From IMG/VR virus record IMGVR_UViG_2585427747_000005: DNA of 11,454 nucleotides. One strand, given 5' to 3'. Of this stretch, positions 1-11,454 are shown one piece after another. The stretch is from a virus. Lineage: Duplodnaviria > Heunggongvirae > Uroviricota > Caudoviricetes. The notes below the pieces were generated by a model. That model was not told the DNA's origin and did not search any database. It saw only the letters and a list, made by a program, of their open reading frames with translations. The translations under genes were made by a program, and so were the position numbers. How positions within the stretch are numbered: position 1 is the first letter of the stretch; every line of letters begins with the position of its first letter.

Positions 1-1218
1 ATGAACAAACTGAGCGATACCTTGCTAAGGAAACTTCATGGTAAGCCAGCGGAGAAAAACACGTTTTATAGTGATGGCGGAAACCTGAGCGTGAAATATT
101 TAACATCAGGGAAATTGACCTGGTATTTCACATACAGGGCCGGAACGGGAAGGGAGACACGACCCGAACGCATTAAGCTGGGAAGTTATCCTGATCTGAG
201 CCTGAAAGCAGCCAGGGAAAAAGCCGCACAGTGTCGCACATGGCTGGCTGAGGGGAAAAATCCACGTCATGAGATGAATTACACCGTACAGGAAGCGTTA
301 AAGCCCGTAACGGTTGGCGATGCGCTCACCTACTGGCTTGAGTATTACGTAAAGGAAAACCGCGTGGATTATATCGCCCTGAAAAGGCGACTTAATAATC
401 ACGTAATACAGCAGATTGGTGCTATGCCGCTGGATAAATGCGAGCTACGGCACTGGCTGGCCTGTTTTGACCAGGTGGCAAAGCGAACGCCTGTTACTGC
501 CGGATTCGTGCTACAGGCGTGCAAACAGGCGCTTAAGTTCTGCCGTAGGCGGCGCTATGCAATCAGCAACGTTCTGGACGATCTGAACGTTGCGGACGTT
601 GGGAAAAAACCGGATATAAGCGAACGTGTCTTAAGTAACAAAGAACTTGGCGAATTATTGCAGGCACTGGACAAAAAAATATTCTCCCCTTACTACGTCG
701 CGTTAATCCGCCTCCTGATTGTCTTCGGAGCCAGAACGGTAGAACTGAGGTTATCGGAGATCGGGGAGTGGGATTTTACGGAAATGCTATGGACCGTTCC
801 GAAGGAGCACAGCAAAACGAAGGTCGCAATATTCCGGCCCATACCGGAAGCGATCCTGCCGTTCGTCACGCAGCTGGTGGAGCAGAACAGGCACACGGGC
901 TTATTGCTGGGGGAAGTGAAACAGGAGGCCAGCGTATCGCAGTATGGAAGATTAGCGCACTGGAGGCTTAATCACCCTCACTGGTCACTGCATGACATCC
1001 GGCGCACCTTTACAACCATGCTGAACGATTTAGGCGTTGATCCGCATGTCGTGGAGCAGCTTACAGGCCACCAGATGCCAGGAATGCAGCGAGTTTATAA
1101 TCATTCCCGTTATCTGGATGCGAAACGCAATGCGCTGGATATGTGGACGGAGCGGTTAGGGATACTGGCGGGAAAACATGAAAACGTAACCACGCTACCC
1201 GTAGCCAGAAGAAAATAA
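1..1218 (+). CDS. int: Tyrosine site-specific integrase, P4/CP4-57 family
   Basis: 405-aa ORF starting with ATG at 1; N-terminal arm-binding-type region (SDGGNLSVKY..WYFTYR); C-terminal catalytic motifs HDIRRT and VYNHSRY (HxxR and the catalytic Tyr). Confidence 0.9.
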   Translation: MNKLSDTLLRKLHGKPAEKNTFYSDGGNLSVKYLTSGKLTWYFTYRAGTGRETRPERIKLGSYPDLSLKAAREKAAQCRTWLAEGKNPRHEMNYTVQEALKPVTVGDALTYWLEYYVKENRVDYIALKRRLNNHVIQQIGAMPLDKCELRHWLACFDQVAKRTPVTAGFVLQACKQALKFCRRRRYAISNVLDDLNVADVGKKPDISERVLSNKELGELLQALDKKIFSPYYVALIRLLIVFGARTVELRLSEIGEWDFTEMLWTVPKEHSKTKVAIFRPIPEAILPFVTQLVEQNRHTGLLLGEVKQEASVSQYGRLAHWRLNHPHWSLHDIRRTFTTMLNDLGVDPHVVEQLTGHQMPGMQRVYNHSRYLDAKRNALDMWTERLGILAGKHENVTTLPVARRK

Positions 1219-1583: not shown

Positions 1584-1772
1584 GTGTTAAGCACTGATCG
1601 GTTTATACGTGAAAAAGAATGCGAAAAACTAACCGGCCTTAGCCGTACGTGTCGCTACCGCCTGGAAAAGGCCGGACAATTCCCATCACGTCGTAAACTT
1701 GGCGGTCGTTCCGTTGGATGGTCTTTATCCGAGGTTCTGGCCTGGAAGGATAGCTGCAAGGCAGTTCATTAA
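1584..1772 (+). CDS. alpA: AlpA-family (Xis-like) transcriptional regulator / recombination directionality factor
   Basis: GTG start at 1584 preceded by a strong Shine-Dalgarno (AAAGGGGGG, 1571-1578); HTH segment LTGLSRTCRYRLEKAGQFP and KLGGRSVGW typical of the AlpA family. The track ORF starts at a TTG at 1503, which is unlikely. Confidence 0.8.
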   Translation: MLSTDRFIREKECEKLTGLSRTCRYRLEKAGQFPSRRKLGGRSVGWSLSEVLAWKDSCKAVH

Positions 1773-1918
1773 TCACGCTGGCGGCACGCAGCCGCCACAC
1801 ATCAATCATCTGAACACAGAGCTATAACCATGAAGATTGAATATACGCCAGAACGTGGGCGGGGATTCGTTCGCCCTGGTGAAACTGAAAAACAACAAAA
1901 TTGGGGTTTTTCAGGTAT

Positions 1919-1948
1919 AAAAAAAGCGGCCCCGAAATGGAGCCGCCT
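1919..1948 (-). terminator. Rho-independent terminator for the leftward small-gene operon
   Basis: On the minus strand GGCGGCUCC-AUUUC-GGGGCCGC forms an 8-bp stem with a 5-nt loop, followed by a 7-U run. Confidence 0.6.
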
Positions 1949-2041
1949 TTCTGAACAGATAACCCGCTGCGCCGTTTGTGTGTGTGATCCCAAACATAAG
2001 CACGGGGATGATAGCCGTTATCAGGCTGGTGGGCAATGCAA

Positions 2042-2230
2042 TCAGTCTGGTTCAGTTCGTTGCCATACCTGCAATGAGCGCTTTTCCCTGTACTCTTTAA
2101 GGAATTGCTCAAGGGCAAAAGCACATGGCGCGAATCTTTCTGATTCATGCTCTATCTTTCTGCGCCGTCTTTTCCGTGCCGGTGATAATGTTTTGGTCAA
2201 TTCTTTATCGGTCATTGTGTTGTCCTGCAT
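2042..2230 (-). CDS. Small basic hypothetical protein (RKRRRRK tract)
   Basis: 62-aa ORF. The likelier start is the internal ATG at 2215, which has an AGGA Shine-Dalgarno; it lies 42 nt downstream of the RHH-like gene and upstream of the minus-strand terminator. Confidence 0.45.
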   Translation of the reverse strand: MQDNTMTDKELTKTLSPARKRRRRKIEHESERFAPCAFALEQFLKEYREKRSLQVWQRTEPD

Positions 2231-2272
2231 AGCAATGCGCCGTAATACCTTACACCACGGCGCTGATGGTGA

Positions 2273-2452
2273 TTACTCTGGTTCTTTGGCCTTGCGCCGC
2301 TGGCGATATTCAACTTCTCGTTTTAATGCCGCAGTAACAAATTGCCCCGTACTTTCGCCAGGCATTTTTACCGCCTCAACATTGTTCATAACTTCATGCG
2401 GAACCCTTGCCGCAACGGTTTGTGATTTTGCGTTTACCGCTTTTGTCGCCAT
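2273..2452 (-). CDS. Ribbon-helix-helix (Arc/CopG-like) DNA-binding protein, candidate repressor
   Basis: 59-aa ORF (MATKAVNAKSQTVAARVPHEVMNNVEAVKMPGESTGQFVTAALKREVEYRQRRKAKEPE), below the track cutoff; GAGGGG Shine-Dalgarno 8 nt before the ATG at 2452; strand-helix-helix pattern; adjacent to the operator triplet. Confidence 0.55.
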   Translation of the reverse strand: MATKAVNAKSQTVAARVPHEVMNNVEAVKMPGESTGQFVTAALKREVEYRQRRKAKEPE

Positions 2453-2502
2453 GTGGTGTACCCCTCATAAAAAACAAATGCAGTATGCAGGAAAAAAAAT
2501 AA

Positions 2503-2554
2503 GTGTTCAACACTTGACGTGTTTAACACCTGGGTTTAAATTGGTGTTCAACAC
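2503..2554. promoter_or_regulatory. Three copies of the 11-bp palindromic operator GTGTT-N-AACAC overlapping divergent promoter elements
   Basis: GTGTTCAACAC at 2503-2513, GTGTTTAACAC at 2519-2529, GTGTTCAACAC at 2544-2554; a TTGACG -35-like hexamer at 2514-2519 sits between the first two. Confidence 0.55.
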
Positions 2555-2651
2555 CTTGTTGGCGCAAGGTGCAGAAACGACGAAACCCGGCAGTGCGCTA
2601 ACACTAACCGGGCTTCTAACCACCAACGATAGCGAAAGTATCGAGGTAGCT

Positions 2652-2855
2652 ATGAGAAATCATACCACACACCCGCAAGGGCGGGACTCGCACGACCTGA
2701 ATAAATACATCTGGCGTTTTATCGCCCTGAGCACGGCACAACCGCGCGTGATTACCATCGAGGCCACCAGCGAACAGGAAGCGCGTCAGCAATCTCCGGC
2801 TGGCTGCGTGATGGTATTCGCTGCCCGTATTCGCCAGGGGTCACATCATGCGTAA
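2652..2855 (+). CDS. Icd-like / P4 Kil-region-like small protein
   Basis: 67 aa, GAGGT Shine-Dalgarno; motif YIWRF...ATSEQEARQQ...VFAARIRQG matches my recollection of the host cell division inhibitor Icd-like family. Confidence 0.55.
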   Translation: MRNHTTHPQGRDSHDLNKYIWRFIALSTAQPRVITIEATSEQEARQQSPAGCVMVFAARIRQGSHHA

Positions 2856-3141
2856 AAACCGCTTGCAAAAAATTATCACGGGGCTGTATGCTTCCCCCGT
2901 CGCCCACATGGCGACCGGGTTTGACAGCCTGAATACATCTGGCGGACAGCCGCCCACATCCGATAAGCGGTTTTTTTGTGTCCGTAAACCTACCCATACC
3001 CGCATTATGGCGGGGCGTAACGGGGGAGCCTTTGTGCTCGCTGGTTTCCAGATGACCAGTCTGTCAACCCTGTTACGTCTCGCCACCATGTTTGACAGCG
3101 TAGTAGCGAGACTCCTTAAAATTCATCTGGGAGCCTTTCAC

Positions 3142-3309
3142 ATGGCTGTATCCGCACGCCCTTATTTTGTCTGGCGCTTTATGCAGTGCCTGACAGACAG
3201 CATTGCAATATTCACCGTTACCGCTGCCACTGAGCGCGAAGCACGTGCACAGCTGCCGCACGCACATCTGATTTTTGTCGCCCGTATTCGTCAGGGGGTA
3301 GGCTTATGA
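3142..3309 (+). CDS. Icd-like paralog (second copy)
   Basis: 55 aa from the ATG at 3142 (GGAG Shine-Dalgarno); YFVWRF...ATEREARAQ...FVARIRQG parallels the first copy. A longer in-frame ORF starts at 2848 but its N-terminal 98 aa look non-protein-like. Confidence 0.5.
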   Translation: MAVSARPYFVWRFMQCLTDSIAIFTVTAATEREARAQLPHAHLIFVARIRQGVGL

Positions 3310-4207: not shown

Positions 4208-4507
4208 ATGAAACTTAAATATTCTGGCTTAACTGCCAGTGGCAACACTCACCCTAAATTTACGCGCGGCGATATTTACCGCGACCAGTACGGCGGCACG
4301 GTAATGATTAAGGGCGTGGAAGAACGGCGCGTAACCTACCGCCGTGAAGGTTACGAATATGATTGCGTGATGCCTGTTTATCAGTTCCGGCGTGATTTTT
4401 CTCTGGTACAGACCGCGCCGCATAACGTGTCCACCAGCAACGCCAGGGCACGGGCAAACATCCAGAAGCTGAAAACCATGATTAACGGATTCAGGGGTAA
4501 AAAATGA
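4208..4507 (+). CDS. Hypothetical protein
   Basis: 99-aa ORF, GGAGA Shine-Dalgarno; stop overlaps the start of the replication gene (ATGA). Confidence 0.5.
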   Translation: MKLKYSGLTASGNTHPKFTRGDIYRDQYGGTVMIKGVEERRVTYRREGYEYDCVMPVYQFRRDFSLVQTAPHNVSTSNARARANIQKLKTMINGFRGKK

Positions 4508-6258
4508 AACTGGCACCGAACGTAAAACAGCAGTCACGCGGCATAAAACACAAAGAAACAGAAGTCATTATTTTTGCGGGTAGTGATGCCTGGTCACACG
4601 CAAAACAATGGCAGGAACATGACGCGCGTATGGCCGGAGATAATGAGCCTCCTGTGTGGCTTGGGGAGCAGCAGTTATCCGAACTGGATAAGCTGCAAAT
4701 TGTGCCGGAAGGCAGAAAATCCGTGCGCATATTCAGGGCCGGATATCTTGCGCCAGTAATGATAAAGGCGATTGGTCAGAAGCTGGCGGCGGCAGGCGTA
4801 CAGGATGCAAATTTTTACCCTGATGGTATGCACGGTCAGAAGGTGGAGAACTGGCGCGAATATCTGGCCCGTGAGCGCCAGAATCTTTCTGATGGTCTGG
4901 TCATTGAGCTTCCGGTAAAGCAAAAGGCGCAACTTTCGCAGATGGCGGACAGTGAGCGCGCGCAGCTGCTTGCCGATCGCTTTGATGGCGTTTGCGTACA
5001 TCCTGAAAGTGAAATCGTTCACGTATGGCGCGGCGGGGGATGGTGTCCGGTCAGCACAATGGAACTTAGCCGCGAAATGGTGGCGATCTATTCAGAGCAC
5101 AGGGCCACTTTCAGCAAGCGCGTAATCAATAACGCCGTGGAAGCGTTAAAAGTTATTGCCGAACCAATGGGCGAGCCGTCCGGCGATTTGTTGCCGTTCG
5201 CCAATGGTGCGCTTGACCTGAAAACGGGGGAATTTTCCCCGCACACGCCGGAGAACTGGATCACCACGCACAACGGCATTGAGTACACGCCACCAGCACC
5301 AGGGGAGAACATCCGCGATAACGCGCCAAACTTTCATAAATGGCTTGAGCACGCAGCCGGAAAAGACCCGCGCAAGATGATGCGTATATGTGCCGCGCTG
5401 TACATGATTATGGCGAACCGGTACGACTGGCAGATGTTTATTGAGGCCACCGGAGACGGCGGGAGCGGTAAAAGTACATTCACACACATAGCCAGCCTTC
5501 TGGCAGGGAAACAGAACACGGTAAGCGCTGAAATGACATCGCTTGATGATGCTGGTGGACGTGCGCAGGTTGTCGGGAGTCGTCTTATCGTCCTGGCTGA
5601 CCAGCCGAAATATACAGGCGAAGGAACGGGCATCAAGAAAATCACGGGCGGTGACCCCGTGGAAATTAACCCGAAATACGAAAAGCGTTTCACGGCGGTA
5701 ATCAGGGCGGTGGTGCTGGCGACCAACAATAACCCGATGATATTCACCGAACGGGCCGGAGGTGTGGCACGTCGTCGCGTGATTTTCCGTTTCGACAATA
5801 TCGTCAGTGAGGCCGAAAAAGACAGGGAGCTACCGGAAAAGATCGCGGCTGAAATCCCTGTCATTATCCGCCGATTGCTGGCGAACTTTACCGACCCTGA
5901 GAAGGCACGGGCTTTACTACTGGAACAGCGTGACGGTGATGAAGCTCTGGCAATAAAGCAACAGACGGATCCGGTTATTGAGTTTTGCCAGTTCCTGAAT
6001 TTTCTGGAGGAAGCGCGCGGCCTGATGATGGGGGGCGGTGGCGATTCAGTGAAGTACACGACCAGGAACAGCCTTTACCGCGTCTATCTGGCGTTTATGG
6101 CATACGCAGGCAGGAGCAAACCGCTAAACGTAAATGACTTTGGCAAGGCTATGAAGCCAGCCGCGAAAGTTTACGGACATGAATATATTACGCGGAAAGT
6201 TAAGGGAGTAACGCAGACTAACGCAATAACAACAGACGATTGCGACGCGTTTTTATAA
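4504..6258 (+). CDS. Replication initiator: P4-alpha-family primase C-terminal domain / SF3-type NTPase
   Basis: 584 aa; Walker A GDGGSGKST, Walker B-like RLIVLADQ, D5_N-like segment LPFANGALDLKTGEF; no obvious TOPRIM primase motif seen in the N-terminal third. Confidence 0.85.
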   Translation: MKLAPNVKQQSRGIKHKETEVIIFAGSDAWSHAKQWQEHDARMAGDNEPPVWLGEQQLSELDKLQIVPEGRKSVRIFRAGYLAPVMIKAIGQKLAAAGVQDANFYPDGMHGQKVENWREYLARERQNLSDGLVIELPVKQKAQLSQMADSERAQLLADRFDGVCVHPESEIVHVWRGGGWCPVSTMELSREMVAIYSEHRATFSKRVINNAVEALKVIAEPMGEPSGDLLPFANGALDLKTGEFSPHTPENWITTHNGIEYTPPAPGENIRDNAPNFHKWLEHAAGKDPRKMMRICAALYMIMANRYDWQMFIEATGDGGSGKSTFTHIASLLAGKQNTVSAEMTSLDDAGGRAQVVGSRLIVLADQPKYTGEGTGIKKITGGDPVEINPKYEKRFTAVIRAVVLATNNNPMIFTERAGGVARRRVIFRFDNIVSEAEKDRELPEKIAAEIPVIIRRLLANFTDPEKARALLLEQRDGDEALAIKQQTDPVIEFCQFLNFLEEARGLMMGGGGDSVKYTTRNSLYRVYLAFMAYAGRSKPLNVNDFGKAMKPAAKVYGHEYITRKVKGVTQTNAITTDDCDAFL

Positions 6259-6270
6259 TTTTTTGCAATG

Positions 6271-6498
6271 GCTGTCTACCCTGTCTACCTGAGTAAAGAA
6301 AAATACATTTAATTCAGTATATTAACTTAGGTAGGCAGCCTTTTTTCACTGTCTACCTACTATCTACCCTCTCTACCTGATTTTACCTGAATCAGACAGG
6401 GAGGTAGATACGGGGTAGATAGTGGATAAAAGCACTCTACCCCGCTGAAAGCCGCGCCATTACTGGCATGAGAGCCAGTAAGGTAGATAAGGTAGACA
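6271..6498. repeat. Origin of replication: iteron array (TGTCTACC and variants, both orientations)
   Basis: TGTCTACC at 6273, 6282 and 6350; ATCTACC at 6362; CTCTACC at 6371 and 6434; inverted GGTAGATA/GGTAGACA at 6403, 6414, 6482 and 6491; immediately downstream of the replication gene. Confidence 0.7.
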
Positions 6499-6546
6499 AG
6501 GGGAGGCACAACTCAAAACTTTTTAAACGAGGGGGTAAAAATAAAA

Positions 6547-6804
6547 ATGCGCACATCAGGAAAACTTAATAATCAGAAGAAGCAGCATAACCGCGCCATT
6601 GACCTTACAGAGCACTGGCTGAGAGTGGCGATAAAAATCATCGACCGCAACACGGGGGAAGGATACGCGAAAGCACATCCCGACCTGATAAGCGCATTCA
6701 TGACCACGGCGGCGGCAAACTTTGCCACGCTGACAGAACGGGAGATTGCCGAAGCGGAACAGGTAACAACCATCAACGTTAAAACCGGAGAGGTGGAATC
6801 ATGA
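6547..6804 (+). CDS. Hypothetical protein
   Basis: 85-aa ORF with a GAGGGGG Shine-Dalgarno; stop overlaps the SSB start (ATGA). Confidence 0.5.
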   Translation: MRTSGKLNNQKKQHNRAIDLTEHWLRVAIKIIDRNTGEGYAKAHPDLISAFMTTAAANFATLTEREIAEAEQVTTINVKTGEVES

Positions 6805-7223
6805 CAGCACAGATAGCAGCTTACGGGCGGCTGGTGGACGACCCGCAGGTAAAACAGACCAGCAAGGGCACACCAATGACGCTGGCACGTATGGCGGTCC
6901 CCCTTCCGTGCAGCCAGGCAGATGACGGAACGGCGACGATGTGGTTATCCGTCCTGGCATTTGGCAGACAGGCCGAAGCACTGGAAAGGCACCGCAAGGG
7001 TGAACTCCTGAGCGTGGCGGGTAACATGCAGATCAGCCAGTGGACTGGGCAGAACGGAGAAACGCGGCAGGGCTGGCAGGTTATCGCAGACAGTGTAATC
7101 AGTGCGCGAACGGCGCGACTGGGCGGCAAAAAAGGTCAACAGGGCCAGGCTACTGACGCGCTGAACAGGGCAAAACAACAGGCGGGGAATGATGATCCGT
7201 ACGGGGATAACATACCGTTTTAA
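6801..7223 (+). CDS. ssb: Single-stranded DNA-binding protein (SSB-like)
   Basis: 140 aa; OB-fold-like conserved positions (W..V.AFG..AE, RKG, W....G..R) and an acidic C-terminal tip DDPYGDNIPF resembling the E. coli SSB D-IPF tail. Confidence 0.75.
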   Translation: MTAQIAAYGRLVDDPQVKQTSKGTPMTLARMAVPLPCSQADDGTATMWLSVLAFGRQAEALERHRKGELLSVAGNMQISQWTGQNGETRQGWQVIADSVISARTARLGGKKGQQGQATDALNRAKQQAGNDDPYGDNIPF

Positions 7224-7239
7224 GCGACGAGTGACAGAA

Positions 7240-7261
7240 GCCGGAGCAATCCGGCTTTTTT
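7240..7261 (+). terminator. Rho-independent terminator after ssb
   Basis: GCCGGA-gcaa-TCCGGC stem-loop followed by 6 T. Confidence 0.7.
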
Positions 7262-7478: not shown

Positions 7479-7554
7479 CATATGAGGCTTTTTGGTGCAC
7501 TGACACACATGATCGGGATAATCATTTCATAATTTGCAACACAACTCAATATCA

Positions 7555-7603
7555 TTGCACAAAATGCAATCATGATTATAATCAGAGCTGGATGAACATC
7601 CAG
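7555..7603 (+). promoter_or_regulatory. Sigma70-like promoter for the head module, with overlapping palindromes
   Basis: -35 TTGCAC (7555-7560), 16-nt spacer, -10 TATAAT (7577-7582); ATTGCA-N5-TGCAAT (7554-7570) overlaps the -35; CTGGATG-aa-CATCCAG (7588-7603) sits at the predicted transcription start. Confidence 0.4.
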
Positions 7604-7638
7604 TTATGATTTTTTAAGTCGAAGAGGAATTTCTTACT

Positions 7639-7845
7639 ATGGCTGAAGAGAAAAAAGGCGGTGTTTCGGTGTACATAAGCCCCGAAATCGTGGAGGTGCT
7701 CAAGCAGCGCCACAAAAAAAACTATGAGGCTGGCGTGGCGGCTGGACTGGATCCGCTGATGACGCCGGAGCCGTCGATAGGTTCACTTGTACGCTCTTAT
7801 TTACTTGCGGCGCTTGGGATGCATAAAAATTATGGGGGTGAATAA
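7639..7845 (+). CDS. Hypothetical small protein upstream of the capsid gene
   Basis: 68-aa ORF; stop overlaps the capsid start (TAATG); possible strand-helix start (VSVYISPEIVEVLKQ). Confidence 0.5.
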   Translation: MAEEKKGGVSVYISPEIVEVLKQRHKKNYEAGVAAGLDPLMTPEPSIGSLVRSYLLAALGMHKNYGGE

Positions 7846-8900
7846 TGGCAGGCAAAGCAACGGCACTTAACACTCACCAGCTTTTTGCGTACCTGAATCG
7901 CGGGGATATTGCGGAATTTAAATTTAGTCCGCTGTTTACCACGCTGTTTTTCCCGAAAGTAGCGACATTCAACACCCAAAACATCATGCTGGATAACCTG
8001 GACACCGAAGAAGTCACTATGTCAGCGTTTTGCTCGCCTATGGTTGGTAGCCAGGTACAGCGCGATAAAGGGTACGAAACCAGCACGATTAAACCTGGCT
8101 ACATGAAGCCAAAGCACGAAATCGATCCAACAAAAACCATCATGCGCATGGCTGGAGAAGATCCGGCACAGCTTAACGACCCAACCTATCGCCGTATGCG
8201 CCTGATTACTGGCAACATGCGCCGCCAGGTAAACGCTATTAAAGCGCGTGTTGAATGGCTGGCGGTAAATGCGGTAACGACCGGAAAAAACATCATTGAG
8301 GGCGAAGGCATAGAACGCTATGAAATCGACTGGAAGATGCCGGAAAACAACATCATAGAGCAGGCCAAAGGCCGTAAATGGTCCGAGCAGGACAAAGAAA
8401 CCCACGATCCAATCTATGATATCGAGCTTTATGCGGATCAGGGCAATTGCCCCGCAAACGTCATGATTATGGGCGCTGAGGTATGGCGCACGTTACGCAG
8501 CTTTAAAAAATTCCGCGAACTGTACGATCTTTCCCGTGGTTCAGAATCCGCCGCAGAACTGGCCTGTAAAAACCTGGGCGAAGTGGTGAGCTTTAAAGGC
8601 TATCTGGGCGATATTGCCCTTATCGTCTATTCCGGCAAATACGCCGACAGCGACGGCACCGAAAAACATTTCCTTGAGCCTGATTTGCTGGTCTTGGGCA
8701 ACACCAACAATAAAGGGCTGGTTGCTTATGGTGCGATTATGGATCAGGAAGCGGTAAGAACGGGCGCAACGCAAAACATGTACTACCCGAAAAACTGGAT
8801 TGAGGACGGCGATCCGGCGATTGAGTACGTGCAGACGCACAGCGCACCGCAGCCGGTGCCGGCAGACATTCGCAAATTTGTTACCGTCAAAATTGGTTAA
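7845..8900 (+). CDS. Major capsid protein, lambda gpE family
   Basis: 351 aa; FKFSPLF..LFF, PGYMKPKHE, EDPAQLNDPTYRRMR, YPKNWIEDGDPAIEY..SAP match remembered lambda gpE segments (FKFDPLF..LFF, PGYVKPKHE, EDPQNLADPAYRRRR, YPKNWVTTGDPAREF..SAP). Confidence 0.9.
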   Translation: MAGKATALNTHQLFAYLNRGDIAEFKFSPLFTTLFFPKVATFNTQNIMLDNLDTEEVTMSAFCSPMVGSQVQRDKGYETSTIKPGYMKPKHEIDPTKTIMRMAGEDPAQLNDPTYRRMRLITGNMRRQVNAIKARVEWLAVNAVTTGKNIIEGEGIERYEIDWKMPENNIIEQAKGRKWSEQDKETHDPIYDIELYADQGNCPANVMIMGAEVWRTLRSFKKFRELYDLSRGSESAAELACKNLGEVVSFKGYLGDIALIVYSGKYADSDGTEKHFLEPDLLVLGNTNNKGLVAYGAIMDQEAVRTGATQNMYYPKNWIEDGDPAIEYVQTHSAPQPVPADIRKFVTVKIG

Positions 8901-8911
8901 CGGGGGATTCT

Positions 8912-9247
8912 ATGAACACTCCATACATTGAGTTATTTGCAGGCAGTCAGCAGGTATCCACGACGCTGGTACATTTTGCCGCTGATGCTGGCGTCATTCA
9001 GGAATTTACCCCGCTGATGCTGGCGGACAATGGCGAGTTTAAGCCGTGGGATGGTCAGGCGTCCGGAAAGGCTGTTTATCTGACTTCGTACCCCGTGGAC
9101 ACGTCAAAGCAGAAATCAGCACAGTGCTACAAGACGGGGATCTTTAATATCGCCGCCGTGAACTGGCCCGAGAGCGTCGACACCGATGCGAAAAAATGCG
9201 CCGCCTTTGCGGGTTCTGGCGTATCCGTTCAGCCGCTGGCCCGATAA
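8912..9247 (+). CDS. Head decoration protein, lambda gpD family
   Basis: 111 aa; TPLMLADNG..WDGQASGKAV...YKTGIFN..WPE...KKCAAFAGSGVSV parallels lambda gpD TPLMLDTSS..WDGTTDGAAV...YKSGTFR..WPE...KKRTAFAGTAISIV. Confidence 0.85.
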   Translation: MNTPYIELFAGSQQVSTTLVHFAADAGVIQEFTPLMLADNGEFKPWDGQASGKAVYLTSYPVDTSKQKSAQCYKTGIFNIAAVNWPESVDTDAKKCAAFAGSGVSVQPLAR

Positions 9248-9259
9248 GCAGGGGGAACG

Positions 9260-9673
9260 ATGGCAACGAATGAAAGCATCATGACGCTACCGCTGGCGAG
9301 TAAATTTAAAGCCGAAGCGCGGGCAATGGCTGACAGAGGTTTATCAACCTACGAGGCCGTATATCAACTCAACAAACTGGAAGAGCAGGACAAGCCGCGC
9401 GCTGATGCGATTATGGCGCTTCATGAGCATAACGACTATCAGCCGCTGTTACGTGCAATGGCAAACGTGCCTTGTATCGATGTTGGTACGGCTAAAAGCA
9501 TCCTTAGCATGACCATAGAGCAGGAACGCCAGAAGGTTGCGCCGGAGCTTACCGCAGCCTTTGAAAACTTTATGGACATGCACAGCCCGCAAGCCGTTTC
9601 AGCTGGCATGGCATACGACGGCAGAAACCCGGGCGATGATGGCGACATCGAGCGCATACTGAAAACCATCTGA
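9260..9673 (+). CDS. Hypothetical protein, last gene of the head-module operon
   Basis: 137-aa ORF with an AGGGGG Shine-Dalgarno; acidic and helical-looking; no confident homolog recognised. Confidence 0.55.
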   Translation: MATNESIMTLPLASKFKAEARAMADRGLSTYEAVYQLNKLEEQDKPRADAIMALHEHNDYQPLLRAMANVPCIDVGTAKSILSMTIEQERQKVAPELTAAFENFMDMHSPQAVSAGMAYDGRNPGDDGDIERILKTI

Positions 9674-9679
9674 GACAAG

Positions 9680-9702
9680 GCCGGAGAAATCCGGCTTTTT
9701 TT
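9680..9702 (+). terminator. Rho-independent terminator
   Basis: GCCGGA-gaaa-TCCGGC followed by 7 T; near-identical to the hairpin at 7240-7255. Confidence 0.7.
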
Positions 9703-9770
9703 ACGGGTCCTTTCCGGCATATGGACCCGTTACGGGGCGGCGACCTCGCGGGTTTTCGCTATTTATGACG
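9703..9770 (+). other. cos: Lambda-type cos site (cosQ-like segment plus cosN GGGCGGCGACCT at 9735-9746)
   Basis: ACGGGTCCTTTCCGG...CCGTTACG|GGGCGGCGACCT|CGCGGGTTTTCGCTATTTATGA matches remembered lambda cos flanks, diverging only in the cosQ-cosN spacer. Confidence 0.8.
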
Positions 9771-9835
9771 TTTTTCCGTGAAGGTGACACCACCACCACT
9801 TGATTAATATTTAACCATGCAGTTAAGGTAACATT

Positions 9836-10276
9836 ATGATTGATAAAGCTTGTTTTGTAAGTCAGCAGGAAATAGCTGAACATTTCAAGGTTAACAGAAC
9901 CACTATTCGCGCATGGACCAAACAGGGGATGCCGTATCTTAATGCGGATCGCGGAAAGTCTGGCGGTTATCACATCGGGCATACATTGCTTTGGTCTTCA
10001 GGTAAAAGCCGTCTTGAGGCCATCAGATATCACGTAGAAACCAGTGCGCTGGAAAAAATTATGTTTGCCAGGCTGCTTTCATCTGAGCGTGACGAGTACT
10101 CCAGTGAAGAAACAGAACATAGATTTGATGAAGGTTTACAGATTTACGGCTACTCACCGGAAGAAGTGAGCAAAGCGCGAAATAAAATGGCCGGCTTTCT
10201 GGCTGGGTGGCGTCATGCCGTAAGCGTTCGCCGTGCCAGCATGGAACAATCAGTCGTTACAGAACAGCAAAGTTAA
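9836..10276 (+). CDS. Terminase small subunit homolog (lambda Nu1-like wHTH); Rpp-like packaging-redirection candidate
   Basis: 146 aa; VSQQEIAEHFKVNRTTIRAWTKQGMPYL parallels lambda Nu1 KKQLADIFGASIRTIQNWQEQGMPVL; no large terminase gene in the window. Confidence 0.8.
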   Translation: MIDKACFVSQQEIAEHFKVNRTTIRAWTKQGMPYLNADRGKSGGYHIGHTLLWSSGKSRLEAIRYHVETSALEKIMFARLLSSERDEYSSEETEHRFDEGLQIYGYSPEEVSKARNKMAGFLAGWRHAVSVRRASMEQSVVTEQQS

Positions 10277-10306
10277 AAATCACTTTCTGTTACGCCATCA
10301 AATACG

Positions 10307-10460
10307 CAATACAACAACCACGTATTTTTTTAAAACTATTTGATTCAATTAGCATTTTTTTATTTTTAGCATCAAAAAAACACTATCAGGTTGTTGTATT
10401 GCTCTTTATTTTTACTTAGTTATCAAATGGATATGACAAACAATTAAACAACAACCTCCC
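10307..10460. repeat. cosB-like array: three ACAACAACC/GGTTGTTGT sites in an AT-rich segment
   Basis: CAATACAACAACC (10307-10319) and its exact inverted copy GGTTGTTGTATTG (10391-10403); third ACAACAACC at 10449-10457; lies between the terS-like stop and the inverted cosN. Confidence 0.45.
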
Positions 10461-10469
10461 TCTAAAAAA

Positions 10470-10537
10470 GCTCATAAATAGCGAAAAACCGCGAGGTCGC
10501 CGCCCCGTAACGGGCCATAATTCCAGGAAGGACCCGA
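10470..10537 (-). other. cos: Second cos copy in inverted orientation (cosN GGGCGGCGACCT on the minus strand, 10494-10505)
   Basis: Reverse complement reads CGGGTCCTTCCTGG...CCGTTACG|GGGCGGCGACCT|CGCGGTTTTTCGCTATTTATGAG, an imperfect inverted repeat of 9703-9770. Confidence 0.7.
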
Positions 10538-10569
10538 CGACACCAGACTATCAGAGCGATGGGGGCACA

Positions 10570-10851
10570 ATGACAGAAGCCGAACTACTGGGATTAATCC
10601 GCCGCGTTACCGGAATCAGCCAGCAGCATGACGAACAGGCCACGCAGCCGGACAGCGTGACCGCCGAAAATTACGCGCGTGTGGTTGCTGAGGTGATGCG
10701 CCGTGATGGTATCCAGCTTAATGATGTGGATATGCGCAACATACGGATCCGCGTTCTTGAAATGCTGGCCTACAATCGCCGCGTGGCACTGTATCGGGAA
10801 ACGGAGAAAATTACGTACCACTGGAAGAAGCCGGAGCGGTTACGGCGTTAA
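10570..10851 (+). CDS. Hypothetical protein
   Basis: 93-aa ORF, G-rich Shine-Dalgarno; no recognisable motif. Confidence 0.5.
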   Translation: MTEAELLGLIRRVTGISQQHDEQATQPDSVTAENYARVVAEVMRRDGIQLNDVDMRNIRIRVLEMLAYNRRVALYRETEKITYHWKKPERLRR

Positions 10852-10902: not shown

Positions 10903-11221
10903 AAAAGACGGTTTAACCGTTAATTAAAAATTGACGGGATTTTATGCTTTCCGGACGACGTGACCAACGTCATTTTTTAGCGAAAAGTTCTGATTAAGGT
11001 CATTGTCTGAATGGTCATAATGACCACTCCTACAAAACAGGTAAAGCCCACCAGCCTGATTAACAGTTAACCGGAAAAAAAATCCGGTAGCCCCGTTATG
11101 GGGATCCCCATATCAACATTAACGCCCCTCATGAATTAGCGCGCTTCCCCCTGGAAAGATGACCCGCCTGTATATTTCTTGTGTCTATTTGTTCCACGTT
11201 GTTTCATACAGTGCACCGAAC

Positions 11222-11243
11222 GGTGTAGTCACTGGTGTAGTCA
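11222..11243. repeat. Tandem 10-bp direct repeat GGTGTAGTCA x2 near the right junction
   Basis: GGTGTAGTCA at 11222-11231 and 11234-11243; adjacent palindromes CACCG-aa-CGGTG (11213-11224) and TGGGGATCCCCA (11099-11110). Confidence 0.4.
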
Positions 11244-11307: not shown

Positions 11308-11454
11308 TTAGTTATATATAACAGCAATAAATAATGCGAGAATAAACGGCACGATGATCTCGGCGGCAAAACGGATACCGCAGAGAATAATGACCAGCAT
11401 TCCCAACATAATGACGATTTTTAGGCCATTGAGCGTGATGATCGGCTTTGCCAT
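11308..11454 (-). pseudogene. tqsA: 5' fragment of an AI-2E family transporter gene (tqsA/ydgG-like), interrupted after about 46 codons
   Basis: Minus-strand translation [45 protein letters not shown] matches my recollection of the E. coli TqsA N-terminus, then diverges (IYN, stop at 11308-11310). Confidence 0.55.

Follow-up and report, generated by a model that had tools for sequence, protein, structure and literature searches.

Why would a phage satellite that encodes no portal, protease or large terminase keep its own genes for a coat protein and a head decoration protein? The question is raised by the segment at positions 7639–9673 of an 11,454-nt stretch of DNA (this whole stretch is hereafter called the window), in which a first-pass annotation had recognized lambda gpE-like and gpD-like genes within an island. 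It had suggested that no known satellite pattern fits, and that the island builds, or helps to build, a smaller capsid. We found that the window is a complete phage satellite of ~11.5 kb, an EcCICFT073-type cos PICI of Gram-negative bacteria, inserted in tqsA. Taken whole, the best explanation is an EcCICFT073-type PICI with an accessory shell operon whose proteins, we infer, are still shell-competent; we put the probability of this reading at roughly 80%.

Identity and borders of the island

The borders of the island were examined in a genome that carries the window at 100% identity. Both flanks are chromosomal: on the left lie pntAB and the 3′ fragment of tqsA, on the right the 5′ fragment of this gene and mdtJI. 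Neither flank holds head genes, which removes the case, allowed for in the first-pass annotation, of a head module lying just outside the window. The att sites are marked by a 9-bp repeat, which is weak evidence by itself and coincides with the ends of both tqsA fragments. The unit measured from repeat to repeat is 11,513 bp. The island thus has the size (10–20 kb), the att repeats and the specific chromosomal site, here a split tqsA with a 9-bp core, by which PICIs are recognized. The layout is also classical for PICIs, with int leftmost, alpA and pri-rep next, and genes mainly in one direction (Table 1). RefSeq places the integrase start 12 nt before the first base of the window.

Pfam domains, repeats and cosN sequences bore out the other island genes that had been named earlier, namely integrase, AlpA, replication protein, iteron origin, SSB and cos. 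The iteron block comprises repeat families D1–D3 and inverted pairs I1–I11, and its position agrees with PICI origins as described (PMC6092414). It putatively acts as the replication origin. The replication block ends at a terminator-like hairpin, which is absent from the consensus scan output. The island's last gene, a conserved ORF of 93 aa, keeps its position in CFT073 and other islands.

Table 1. Features of the island, in window coordinates
Feature	Position	Strand	Evidence
Tyrosine integrase, P4-type, with arm-binding domain	1..1218	+	PF13356 1e-18, PF00589 1e-15
AlpA-family regulator	1584..1772	+	PF05930 5e-17
Primase/replicase (pri-rep), D5_N + DUF5906 + Pox_D5	4504..6258	+	Pfam; phrog_864 1e-174
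Putative replication origin, iterons (C/T)TGTCTACC in both orientations	6272..6500	.	directly 3′ of pri; repeat search
Single-strand DNA-binding protein (SSB)	6801..7223	+	PF00436 5e-15
Terminator-like hairpin and U-run ending the replication block	7236..7261	+	fold -15.4 kcal/mol, z -6.7
68-aa ORF opening the shell operon, c1498 counterpart	7639..7845	+	phrog_3255 9e-46
Lambda gpE-type (HK97-fold) major capsid protein homologue, satellite lineage, c1499 counterpart	7845..8900	+	PF03864 4e-50
gpD-type head decoration protein homologue, c1500 counterpart	8912..9247	+	PF02924 6e-18
137-aa helical protein, predicted to derive from gpC/Nu3 C-terminal scaffold repeats	9260..9673	+	BLASTP, PHROGs, hhalign
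Terminator-like hairpin and U-run ending the shell operon	9677..9703	+	fold -14.1 kcal/mol, z -5.0
cos site adjoining rppA, candidate cos1	9704..9775	+	exact lambda cosN at 9735-9746
RppA, redirecting-phage-packaging protein	9836..10276	+	98% identity to CFT073 144-aa protein; PDB 6HLK RppC 2e-31
Second cos, inverted orientation	10465..10536	-	exact 12-mer cosN 10494-10505, minus strand
93-aa conserved ORF, last gene of the island	10570..10851	+	phrog_1561 1e-57
Doubled motif, 23 bp, CGGTGTAGTCAC/TGGTGTAGTCA	11221..11243	+	repeat search
att core, right copy ATAACAGCA	11318..11326	+	junction with tqsA 5′ part

EcCICFT073, from E. coli CFT073, is the model cos PICI of Gram-negative bacteria; helper-induced excision, replication and high-frequency transfer have been shown for it (PMC6092414). 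Comparison of the sequences from the 68-aa ORF to the 93-aa ORF (c1498–c1504 in CFT073) revealed the same gene order and sizes, with protein identities of 94% for the capsid protein, 96% for the decoration protein, 96% for the 137-aa protein and 98% for Rpp. The inverted pair of cos sites and the int-alpA-pri-ori layout are likewise shared. The two islands differ in their insertion sites, EcCICFT073 lying beside phoQ and the present island in tqsA, and in a PerC-family gene that is found just upstream of the 68-aa ORF in EcCICFT073, whereas none is annotated there in the genome that carries the window.

Portal, protease and large terminase were absent from the window according to the ORF list and a Pfam scan of the 25 island ORFs, as the first-pass annotation had stated. 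More broadly, no ORF or domain for a portal, a maturation protease, head-tail connectors or TerL was detected in the window or its flanks, and the ORF list, Pfam and PHROGs gave no lysis genes, tail genes or complete head gene set in the island.

Packaging sites and RppA

The island carries the exact lambda cosN twice and encodes an Rpp protein instead of a terminase, as PICIs do. The two cos sites form inverted arms of 72 nt that are 86% complementary. The same inverted pair is also present in CFT073 and in the related island L003, and two cos sites have been described for EcCICFT073 (PMC6739421). The copy adjoining rppA is probably cos1.

The 146-aa ORF between the cos sites had been labeled a small terminase. 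We rejected this label in favor of RppA, given its 98% identity to the protein at the c1503 position of CFT073 and its match to PDB 6HLK. The EcCICFT073 protein c1503 is RppA, with 144 residues (PMC6739421); the C-terminal end of the protein encoded here differs slightly from it.

In EcCICFT073, RppA pairs with the helper TerS and retargets packaging to the cosB that the island carries (PMC6739421). The RppA of the present island would act in the same way, pairing with helper TerS and directing packaging to the island cosB. By itself, the island would be unable to form a head, and a lambda-like cos helper would supply portal, protease, terminase and tails; supply of head parts by the helper has been shown experimentally in the near-identical EcCICFT073 (PMC6092414, PMC6739421). 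That the island both is what we take it to be and is packaged by the EcCICFT073 route is, considered jointly, almost certain.

Coat and decoration genes of the shell operon

The shell operon consists of the 68-aa ORF, the gpE-type gene, the gpD-type gene and the 137-aa ORF, in this order, and is followed by cos, rppA, the inverted cos and the 93-aa ORF. It is bracketed by two terminator-like hairpins, the second of which is, like the first, absent from the consensus scan output.

Both shell proteins proved to be what the first-pass annotation had taken them for. The 351-aa product of the capsid ORF matches PF03864 (Phage_cap_E) across the whole profile, at 171 bits against a curated cut-off of 22.9. 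Its identity to lambda gpE is 43%; since the alignment spans the whole length and divergence is even, no domain has been lost. Among solved structures it matches the lambda gpE chain of cryo-EM entry 7VI9 (E 8e-84). It shares 94% identity with its CFT073 orthologue c1499, whose crystal structure is PDB 3BQW. Read from the solved relatives 3BQW and 7VI9, its predicted fold is the HK97/gpE fold. The 111-aa product of the following ORF matches PF02924 (HDPD) at 65.6 bits (cut-off 29.1) and the solved gpD/SHP structures 1TD0 (3e-13) and 1C5E (2e-9). Its identity to lambda gpD is 36% across 76 aa, with the N-terminal 30 residues unaligned, and to its CFT073 counterpart 96%. From these matches it is predicted to be a gpD-type decoration protein.

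The island proteins thus fall into the same families as the lambda head proteins, including the C-terminal scaffold repeats of gpC/Nu3, but they are distant from them in sequence. Gene order differs as well. Lambda has Nu3, D and E in succession, with D (5747-6079) ahead of E (6135-7160), whereas the island has E, D and the scaffold-like gene on one strand, with no protease domain, portal or terminase, so that the reversed E-before-D order noticed at first was correct.

A leader of the Q-type antitermination layout was considered upstream of the shell operon, where a TATAAT (7577-7582) is followed by a hairpin with a U-run (7580-7615). We make no claim for it because the predicted start falls inside the hairpin and the site is absent from the promoter scan.

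The 68-aa and 137-aa ORFs

The ORF that opens the shell operon keeps its place ahead of the capsid gene across E. coli islands; in Salmonella its conservation is looser. Pfam, PDB, NCBIfam and PADLOC returned no match for its product. The AF2 monomer consists of two helices only, and Foldseek found no relative of this model (best E 1.3). A sequence pattern had pointed to a ribbon-helix-helix DNA-binding protein, which we discarded in view of these searches and the two-helix model. Lambda gpW, which also has 68 aa, is unrelated.

The 137-aa ORF showed several similarities to scaffold proteins. BLASTP aligned it (E 3e-8) with residues 416-498 of a 501-aa S49 protease-scaffold protein from a lambda-like CFT073 prophage. 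It matched the C-terminus of phrog_53 (5e-8), and hhalign placed it with P0042, a head scaffolding or capsid assembly protein by PHROG class, at 96.5% probability (E 8e-10). The match to lambda Nu3 proper is weak. Because the all-helical AF2 model is of low confidence (pLDDT 61) and a Foldseek search of viral structures with it came back empty, the scaffold assignment was made from sequence alone, and by this criterion the ORF derives from the C-terminus of the gpC/Nu3 scaffold. The earlier statement that the island has no scaffold is for this reason only partly true. The accompanying idea that this ORF encodes an assembly factor is somewhat strengthened by the same homology. The name "phage head-tail connector protein", given by RefSeq to some variants, is unsupported by Pfam, PHROGs or NCBIfam, and we reject it. 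This third shell gene is not universal; in other lineages an AlpA-domain ORF takes its place, or it is gone.

Prevalence and selection

The shell block was found in 598 of 5,426 complete E. coli genomes, or about one in nine, among them O157:H7, O55:H7 and ATCC 25922. Nucleotide identity was 91-100% in all but one of these 598, and query coverage was at least 80% in 590. Among the matches listed, the full-coverage records all had annotated capsid and decoration genes. The block occupies at least three insertion sites, accompanied by differing rep and Rpp modules.

Both genes are under strong purifying selection and are clearly not decaying: with dS reaching 0.9, dN/dS came to 0.10-0.13 (capsid gene) and 0.08-0.12 (decoration gene). 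All seven loci read among relatives of 51-67% identity were PICI-like and had E before D, whereas the one phage relative read, at 37%, lay in a complete phage head module in which D precedes E. Capsid identity was 51-95% among the satellite relatives read and never exceeded 47% to phage records. The E-then-D pair is kept across E. coli, Salmonella and Serratia, and this gene order is the hallmark of a satellite-specific lineage in Enterobacterales. The prevalence, the dN/dS of ~0.1 and the E-before-D order in seven of seven satellite relatives are new here.

Genetics of the EcCICFT073 orthologues

The capsid gene (c1499) and head-decoration gene (c1500) of EcCICFT073 were described and deleted in 2018 (PMC6092414), and among 29 Gram-negative PICIs used as references, 21 carry a capsid gene (PMC10111431). 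Because the EcCICFT073 genes had been reported, the initial observation of coat and decoration genes, although right, is not new, and the contention that no known pattern fits gives way to that of a classical EcCICFT073-type PICI. The main content of the present analysis is accordingly a re-discovery of a published feature of this type of island.

Deletion of c1499 or c1500 left both resident-prophage transfer and lambda interference unchanged, and with lambda, phage 80 or CFT073 phage 4 as helper, an island carrying c1499::cat reached transfer titers of 10^3 to 10^6 per ml (PMC6092414). EcCICFT073 DNA packaged with lambda was all phage-sized (PMC6092414). When the post-ori genes were expressed singly, c1503 alone inhibited lambda, and its deletion restored plaquing nearly fully (PMC6739421). 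The EcCICFT073 shell genes are thus accessory, being dispensable for transfer and for lambda interference with the tested helpers. Since these orthologues are 94-96% identical to the proteins studied here, the results also tell against the proposal that the island builds, alone or jointly, a smaller capsid; an absence of effect on deletion is an outcome that the first-pass annotation had itself named as refuting it. Our literature search turned up neither proteomics nor EM of E. coli PICI particles, and no later work settling the function of c1499 or c1500.

What remains is a gap: a coat, decoration and scaffold-like block present in about a ninth of complete E. coli genomes and kept by strong purifying selection has no known phenotype. 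The question is now sharper, in that the third gene appears to be Nu3/gpC-derived, the E-before-D pair belongs to a satellite lineage and the genes are not decaying.

Possible roles of the shell operon

Strong purifying selection and the satellite-specific E-then-D pair in E. coli, Salmonella and Serratia led us to consider the shell proteins as still functional in a shell. Island coat subunits might enter or supplement proheads nucleated by the helper, with helpers or under conditions outside those tested. The coat would probably be chaperoned by the island's own scaffold-like 137-aa protein, and the cognate decoration trimer would cap it. As deletion and over-expression of the capsid and decoration genes in EcCICFT073 gave no phenotype, the argument for co-assembly is drawn entirely from conservation and from the roles of these folds in phages, and we propose co-assembly of island coat and decoration into helper proheads tentatively, at less than even odds. 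A further-reaching version, that the pair (with or without the scaffold-like gene) represents an old and assembly-competent satellite capsid lineage that forms mixed or satellite-only shells on helper portals with certain helpers or under certain conditions, is in our judgment rather improbable. If true, it would constitute a strategy intermediate between pure hijacking and the cf-PICIs, one missed by the experiments with lambda, phage 80 and CFT073 phage 4. A shell role, if shown, would be a new satellite use of capsid proteins, with relevance for PICI-based delivery particles.

The best surviving alternative is that the coat, decoration and small proteins of the island redirect assembly on helper portal and scaffold to a small capsid suited to ~11.5 kb. 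There are precedents in satellites that, like this island, have a coat homologue and no full head module: Ccm of SaPIbov5 yields small capsids (PMC6893505), and the capsid homologue of Pasteurella PmCI172 is associated with small heads with a Mu-like helper (PMC6092414). The island has coat, decoration and scaffold-like proteins, all under purifying selection, that could serve such a role. The parallel is limited, as Ccm has no sequence relationship to the island coat and offers an analogy only. Ccm gives small capsids and strong interference, whereas the EcCICFT073 orthologues gave neither with the helpers tested; PmCI172 lysates contain small heads, whereas EcCICFT073 packaging was phage-sized. 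With deletion of either gene also leaving transfer and interference as they were, and the c1499::cat island still moving with all three helpers, we consider size redirection unlikely.

Slightly less likely again is a function in interference or defence, in which altered coat, decoration or scaffold subunits would poison head formation in lambda-like competitors other than helpers. Interference with capsid assembly is common among satellites; a coat only 43-47% identical to phage gpE proteins could provide mismatched subunits, and the 137-aa protein could compete with scaffold for binding to the helper coat. A decoration protein, however, fits poorly as a poison, and PADLOC gave no match for the shell proteins and accessory ORFs scanned. 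Lambda interference also persisted without c1499 or c1500 and was traced among the cloned post-ori genes to RppA, whose removal nearly abolished it.

The coat gene has also been proposed to be a spare copy captured from helpers that replaces or backs up the helper capsid gene (PMC10111431), in which case it would have no special role in chromosomal islands. The related islands L012, L005 and L014 do lie in prophage late regions, and L012 splits the helper E gene. The present island, however, sits in tqsA, outside any prophage, and chromosomal islands too show purifying selection. The coat gene is always accompanied by a cognate decoration gene, the order of the two being unlike that in the phage modules read, and the coat lineage is old and satellite-specific by the identities given above, which argues against recent capture. 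We regard this explanation as improbable, more so than the two before it. The possibility that positions 7639-9673 are a piece of the head module of a conventional or decaying prophage is practically negligible: annotation pipelines and PHROGs do class the proteins as phage head, but core chromosomal genes lie on both sides of the split tqsA, the portal, protease, TerL and tail genes are lacking, head and tail genes are missing from the flanks as well, and the ORFs are intact, at dN/dS ~0.1, within a full PICI gene set.

Comparison with other satellites

An EcCICFT073-type PICI with an accessory shell operon is distinct from both satellite types with which the island had first been compared, and in this respect the earlier view was sustained. 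P4-like satellites share the integrase, AlpA and a D5_N-type primase with it, but they use Sid, Psu and Delta and a P2 helper, in contrast to the lambda-type cos helper and Rpp expected here; none of the 25 island ORFs had a Pfam match to Sid, Psu or Delta, a search that very divergent homologues could escape. The cf-PICIs (e.g., EcCIEDL933) form their own heads and encode their own portal, maturation protease, head-tail connectors, HNH, TerS and TerL, and none of these head and terminase genes occurs in the island, as judged from the window and its flanks.

The 23-bp doubled motif near the right end has its second copy 59 nt to the left of the window, and the two copies are probably integrase arm sites. 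A doubled DNA motif adjoining att is mentioned for helper-embedded PICIs (PMC10111431). These helper-embedded PICIs, of the 11capE type (L005, L012, L014; PMC10111431), have the coat-decoration pair and the island layout in common with the present island, but they sit in helper late genes, whereas it occupies a chromosomal gene.

Coat and decoration genes in a satellite island

By the six-frame ORF list of the window, the island runs almost entirely in one direction. The capsid ORF covered the entire Pfam Phage_cap_E profile (4e-50), aligned with lambda gpE colinearly from end to end at 43% identity with evenly spread divergence, and matched the gpE cryo-EM chain at 8e-84. The decoration ORF matched Pfam HDPD (6e-18), solved gpD/SHP structures, and gpD at 36% identity, with its N-terminal 30 residues unaligned with gpD. 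These HMM, BLAST, and solved-structure matches bear out the gpE-like and gpD-like identities proposed in the first-pass annotation, and the coordinates confirm the order E then D, the reverse of that in lambda. The crystal structure PDB 3BQW ("putative capsid protein of prophage") is that of a capsid orthologue, 94% identical to the window protein and identical to the CFT073 capsid at every aligned residue shown. A database relative, P0101, is a 463-aa predicted protein with PF03864 and PF02924 in one ORF on a single 3.2-kb contig, and may be a read-through or assembly artifact of adjoining E and D genes or a genuine fusion.

As the first-pass annotation had stated, no portal, protease, or large-terminase domain was found in any window ORF by Pfam and PHROG scans, nor any tail domain. 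In NZ_CP178659, a genome carrying the window at 100% identity, tqsA, which lies between pntAB (left) and mdtJI (right), is split by the island, and these flanks contain no phage genes beyond the island ends. The satellite reading was right, and a head module just outside the window was not found. The 9-bp repeat ATAACAGCA marks the ends of both tqsA fragments, at a spacing of 11,513 bp. Identical copies of a 23-bp doubled motif, CGGTGTAGTCAC/TGGTGTAGTCA, lie just inside both island ends and probably serve the integrase as arm-type sites. Helper-embedded PICIs have been noted to carry a "doubled DNA motif," which may be the same one (PMC10111431).

The accessory region 1830-3309, which varies among islands with a shared shell block, contains three Icd-like (cell-division inhibitor) ORFs according to RefSeq, one of them truncated, and, in the reverse direction, a YlcI/YnfO-family gene (2273-2452, RefSeq). 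None of these ORFs had a Pfam match.

Features of the island, with identities to the corresponding CFT073 proteins
Feature	Position	Strand	Match or remark
Integrase	1-1218		PF13356, PF00589
AlpA	1584-1772		PF05930, 5e-17
DUF4222 ORF	4208-4507		Preceded by several small ORFs
D5_N/DUF5906 primase	4504-6258		
Iterons	6272-6500		Immediately 3' of primase
SSB	6801-7223		
Block holding capsid/decoration genes	7639-10851		
Capsid (gpE-type)	7845-8900		94% identity
Decoration (gpD-type)	8912-9247		96% identity
137-aa ORF			96% identity
146-aa ORF			98% identity
Exact lambda cosN	9735-9746	+	
Exact lambda cosN, second	10494-10505	-	
cos arm	9704-9775	+	
cos arm	10465-10536	-	
Doubled motif, right	11221-11243		
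Doubled motif, left	59 nt left of window position 1		11941-11963 of L001 (window plus flanks)

Membership of the EcCICFT073 family

CFT073 has the same block with equal gene sizes (207, 1056, 336, 414, 435, and 282 bp). The CFT073 element is EcCICFT073, the model Gram-negative PICI, and the window island belongs to its family. The observation made in the first-pass annotation was correct, but the pattern, taken there as unprecedented, is not new: a "putative capsid protein (c1499)" and a "head decoration protein (c1500)" were described by Fillol-Salom et al. in 2018 (PMC6092414), and a later survey counted 21 reference Gram-negative PICIs out of 29 with a capsid gene, which it calls not needed for transfer (PMC10111431).

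The 146-aa ORF had been labeled a small terminase. That label was dropped in favor of RppA on the basis of its 98% identity to CFT073 RppA and its match to the RppC structure 6HLK (2e-31). Weak matches to HTH and phrog_57 indicate the helix-turn-helix of a TerS-type DNA-binding domain. RppA is the 144-residue product of c1503, and Rpp pairs with the helper TerS, redirecting packaging to the island cosB (PMC6739421). A cos is present, as listed in the first-pass annotation, but as two inverted sites, each with an exact lambda cosN; these flank rppA as 72-nt inverted arms that are 86% complementary. The same inverted pair occurs in CFT073 and one further island, and two sites, called cos1 and cos2, have been described for EcCICFT073 (PMC6739421).

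The shell block and its scaffold-like gene

Stable hairpins followed by U-runs were found downstream of SSB (7236-7261) and of the 137-aa ORF (9677-9703); a generic scan of the window reported neither. Since they bracket the four genes at 7639-9673, they suggest that these form their own transcription unit. The leader contains a weak -35 and a perfect TATAAT (7577-7582), which is overlapped by another stable hairpin with a U-run (-13 kcal/mol, 7580-7615); TTGCA/TGCAA palindromes lie at 7534-7569. Judging from sequence, 7577-7615 may be a regulatory site and the 68-aa protein a candidate regulator. The 68-aa ORF had no NCBIfam or PADLOC match, and PADLOC likewise gave no match for the other shell proteins.

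The 137-aa ORF aligned (E 3e-8) with residues 416-498 of the S49 protease-scaffold protein (501 aa) encoded by a lambda-like prophage of CFT073, and its match to the PHROG head-maturation-protease profile fell at the C-terminus of that profile. When the family profile was used in an exhaustive HMMER search, few relatives were found. Two of these, P0042 and P0044, scored strongly for this family and for "head scaffolding protein" and "capsid assembly protein" families. By hhalign, the family matched P0042 with 96.5% probability over 110 columns, including a repeated motif of Nu3-type scaffolds and a common FE.FM..HSP tail; the match to lambda Nu3 itself was weak. The AF2 model was helical with low confidence, and fold searches with the 68-aa and 137-aa models gave no match. 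We consider the 137-aa ORF to be scaffold-derived with moderate-to-high confidence, so the claim that the island has no scaffold was only partly right. The RefSeq name of some variants, "phage head-tail connector protein," is unsupported by these results; the sequence points to a gpC/Nu3 scaffold C-terminus. The third gene of the block differs by lineage: EcCICFT073-type islands and those at loci L009 and L010 have a scaffold-like gene (137 or 141 aa), L011-L014 have an ORF with an AlpA domain (114-145 aa), and the Salmonella locus L008 has none.

Distribution, selection, and lineage

The 2-kb block matched 598 of 5,426 complete E. coli genomes, 590 of them with at least 80% query coverage and all but one at 91-100% nucleotide identity. 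Hosts include O157:H7, O55:H7, and ATCC 25922. The block was found at tqsA, beside phoQ, and inside prophages. Some islands pair it with a primase and others with a RepA-type helicase, and the accompanying Rpp or Nu1-like genes differ. By the Nei-Gojobori method, comparing the window with two variants, dN/dS was 0.10-0.13 for the capsid, and 0.08-0.12 for the decoration gene, with dS up to 0.9; the 68-aa and 137-aa ORFs gave about 0.24. The shell genes are not decaying, and the coat, decoration, and scaffold-like genes are all under purifying selection.

The identity of protein relatives falls off gradually from 95% to about 50%; they occur in E. coli, Salmonella, Edwardsiella, Lelliottia, Serratia, Cedecea, and Scandinavium. 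All seven examined loci of relatives with 51-67% identity were PICI-like (int, usually AlpA, and a replication gene), each with the capsid gene directly followed by the decoration gene. A 37% relative in Pseudoalteromonas lies in a full phage head module, in the order TerL, gpW, portal, S49 protease, D, E. No deposited phage capsid more than 47% identical to the island capsid was found. Because of the graded relatives, their PICI-like contexts, and this lack of close phage capsids, the E-then-D pair seems to be a lineage specific to satellites and of long standing, not one captured recently.

Three ~20-kb records named "Escherichia phage vB_EcoM" (ON470596, ON470627, and ON470604) encode a gpE-type capsid 45% identical to that of the island, and may be partial phages or satellite-like elements. 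Relatives of the island also sit inside prophage late regions, at L005 (2777-13000), L012 (1919-12300), and L014 (3292-13000); these are published helper-embedded PICIs. In L012, the helper's own major capsid gene is split by an island bearing its own coat and decoration genes.

Possible roles of the shell genes

These results narrow an already known question, namely why such satellites retain coat and decoration genes and, in some cases, a scaffold-like one. EcCICFT073, near-identical to the window island, is induced by lambda-like cos helpers (PMC6092414); RppA turns the helper's terminase to the island cos, and the island is packaged into helper-type full-size heads (PMC6092414, PMC6739421). 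The first-pass annotation proposed that the island may build or co-assemble a capsid lattice from its own coat protein on helper portal and scaffold, possibly of reduced size. In the closest orthologue, this failed with three helpers the refutation test set in that annotation: induction and packaging with the helpers tested do not need the coat and decoration genes, deletion of c1499 or c1500 left transfer by resident prophages unchanged, and, with lambda, phage 80, or CFT073 phage 4 as helper, an island with c1499 replaced by cat reached transfer levels of 10^3 to 10^6 per ml (PMC6092414).

The coat protein is nevertheless full-length, with its own decoration protein alongside and, in this lineage, its own scaffold-like protein. 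Lambda gpD binds only the assembled, expanded gpE lattice. Because of these features and the purifying selection, the simplest reading, to which we give about one chance in three, is that the island coat protein would enter capsid lattices, mixed with or replacing helper subunits in proheads nucleated by the helper. Any benefit would then depend on conditions, and laboratory work using lambda, phage 80, or phage 4 would have missed it.

Redirection to a smaller capsid is less likely, as EcCICFT073 DNA packaged with lambda was all phage-sized (PMC6092414). Poisoning of competing phages by the shell proteins is likewise a less likely role: deletion of c1499 or c1500 did not restore lambda plaquing (PMC6092414), and when each gene downstream of ori was cloned, only c1503 inhibited lambda (2019 Mol Cell; PMC6739421). 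Retention of the coat gene as a "spare copy" of that of the helper is also less probable than lattice entry, and a prophage remnant is excluded.
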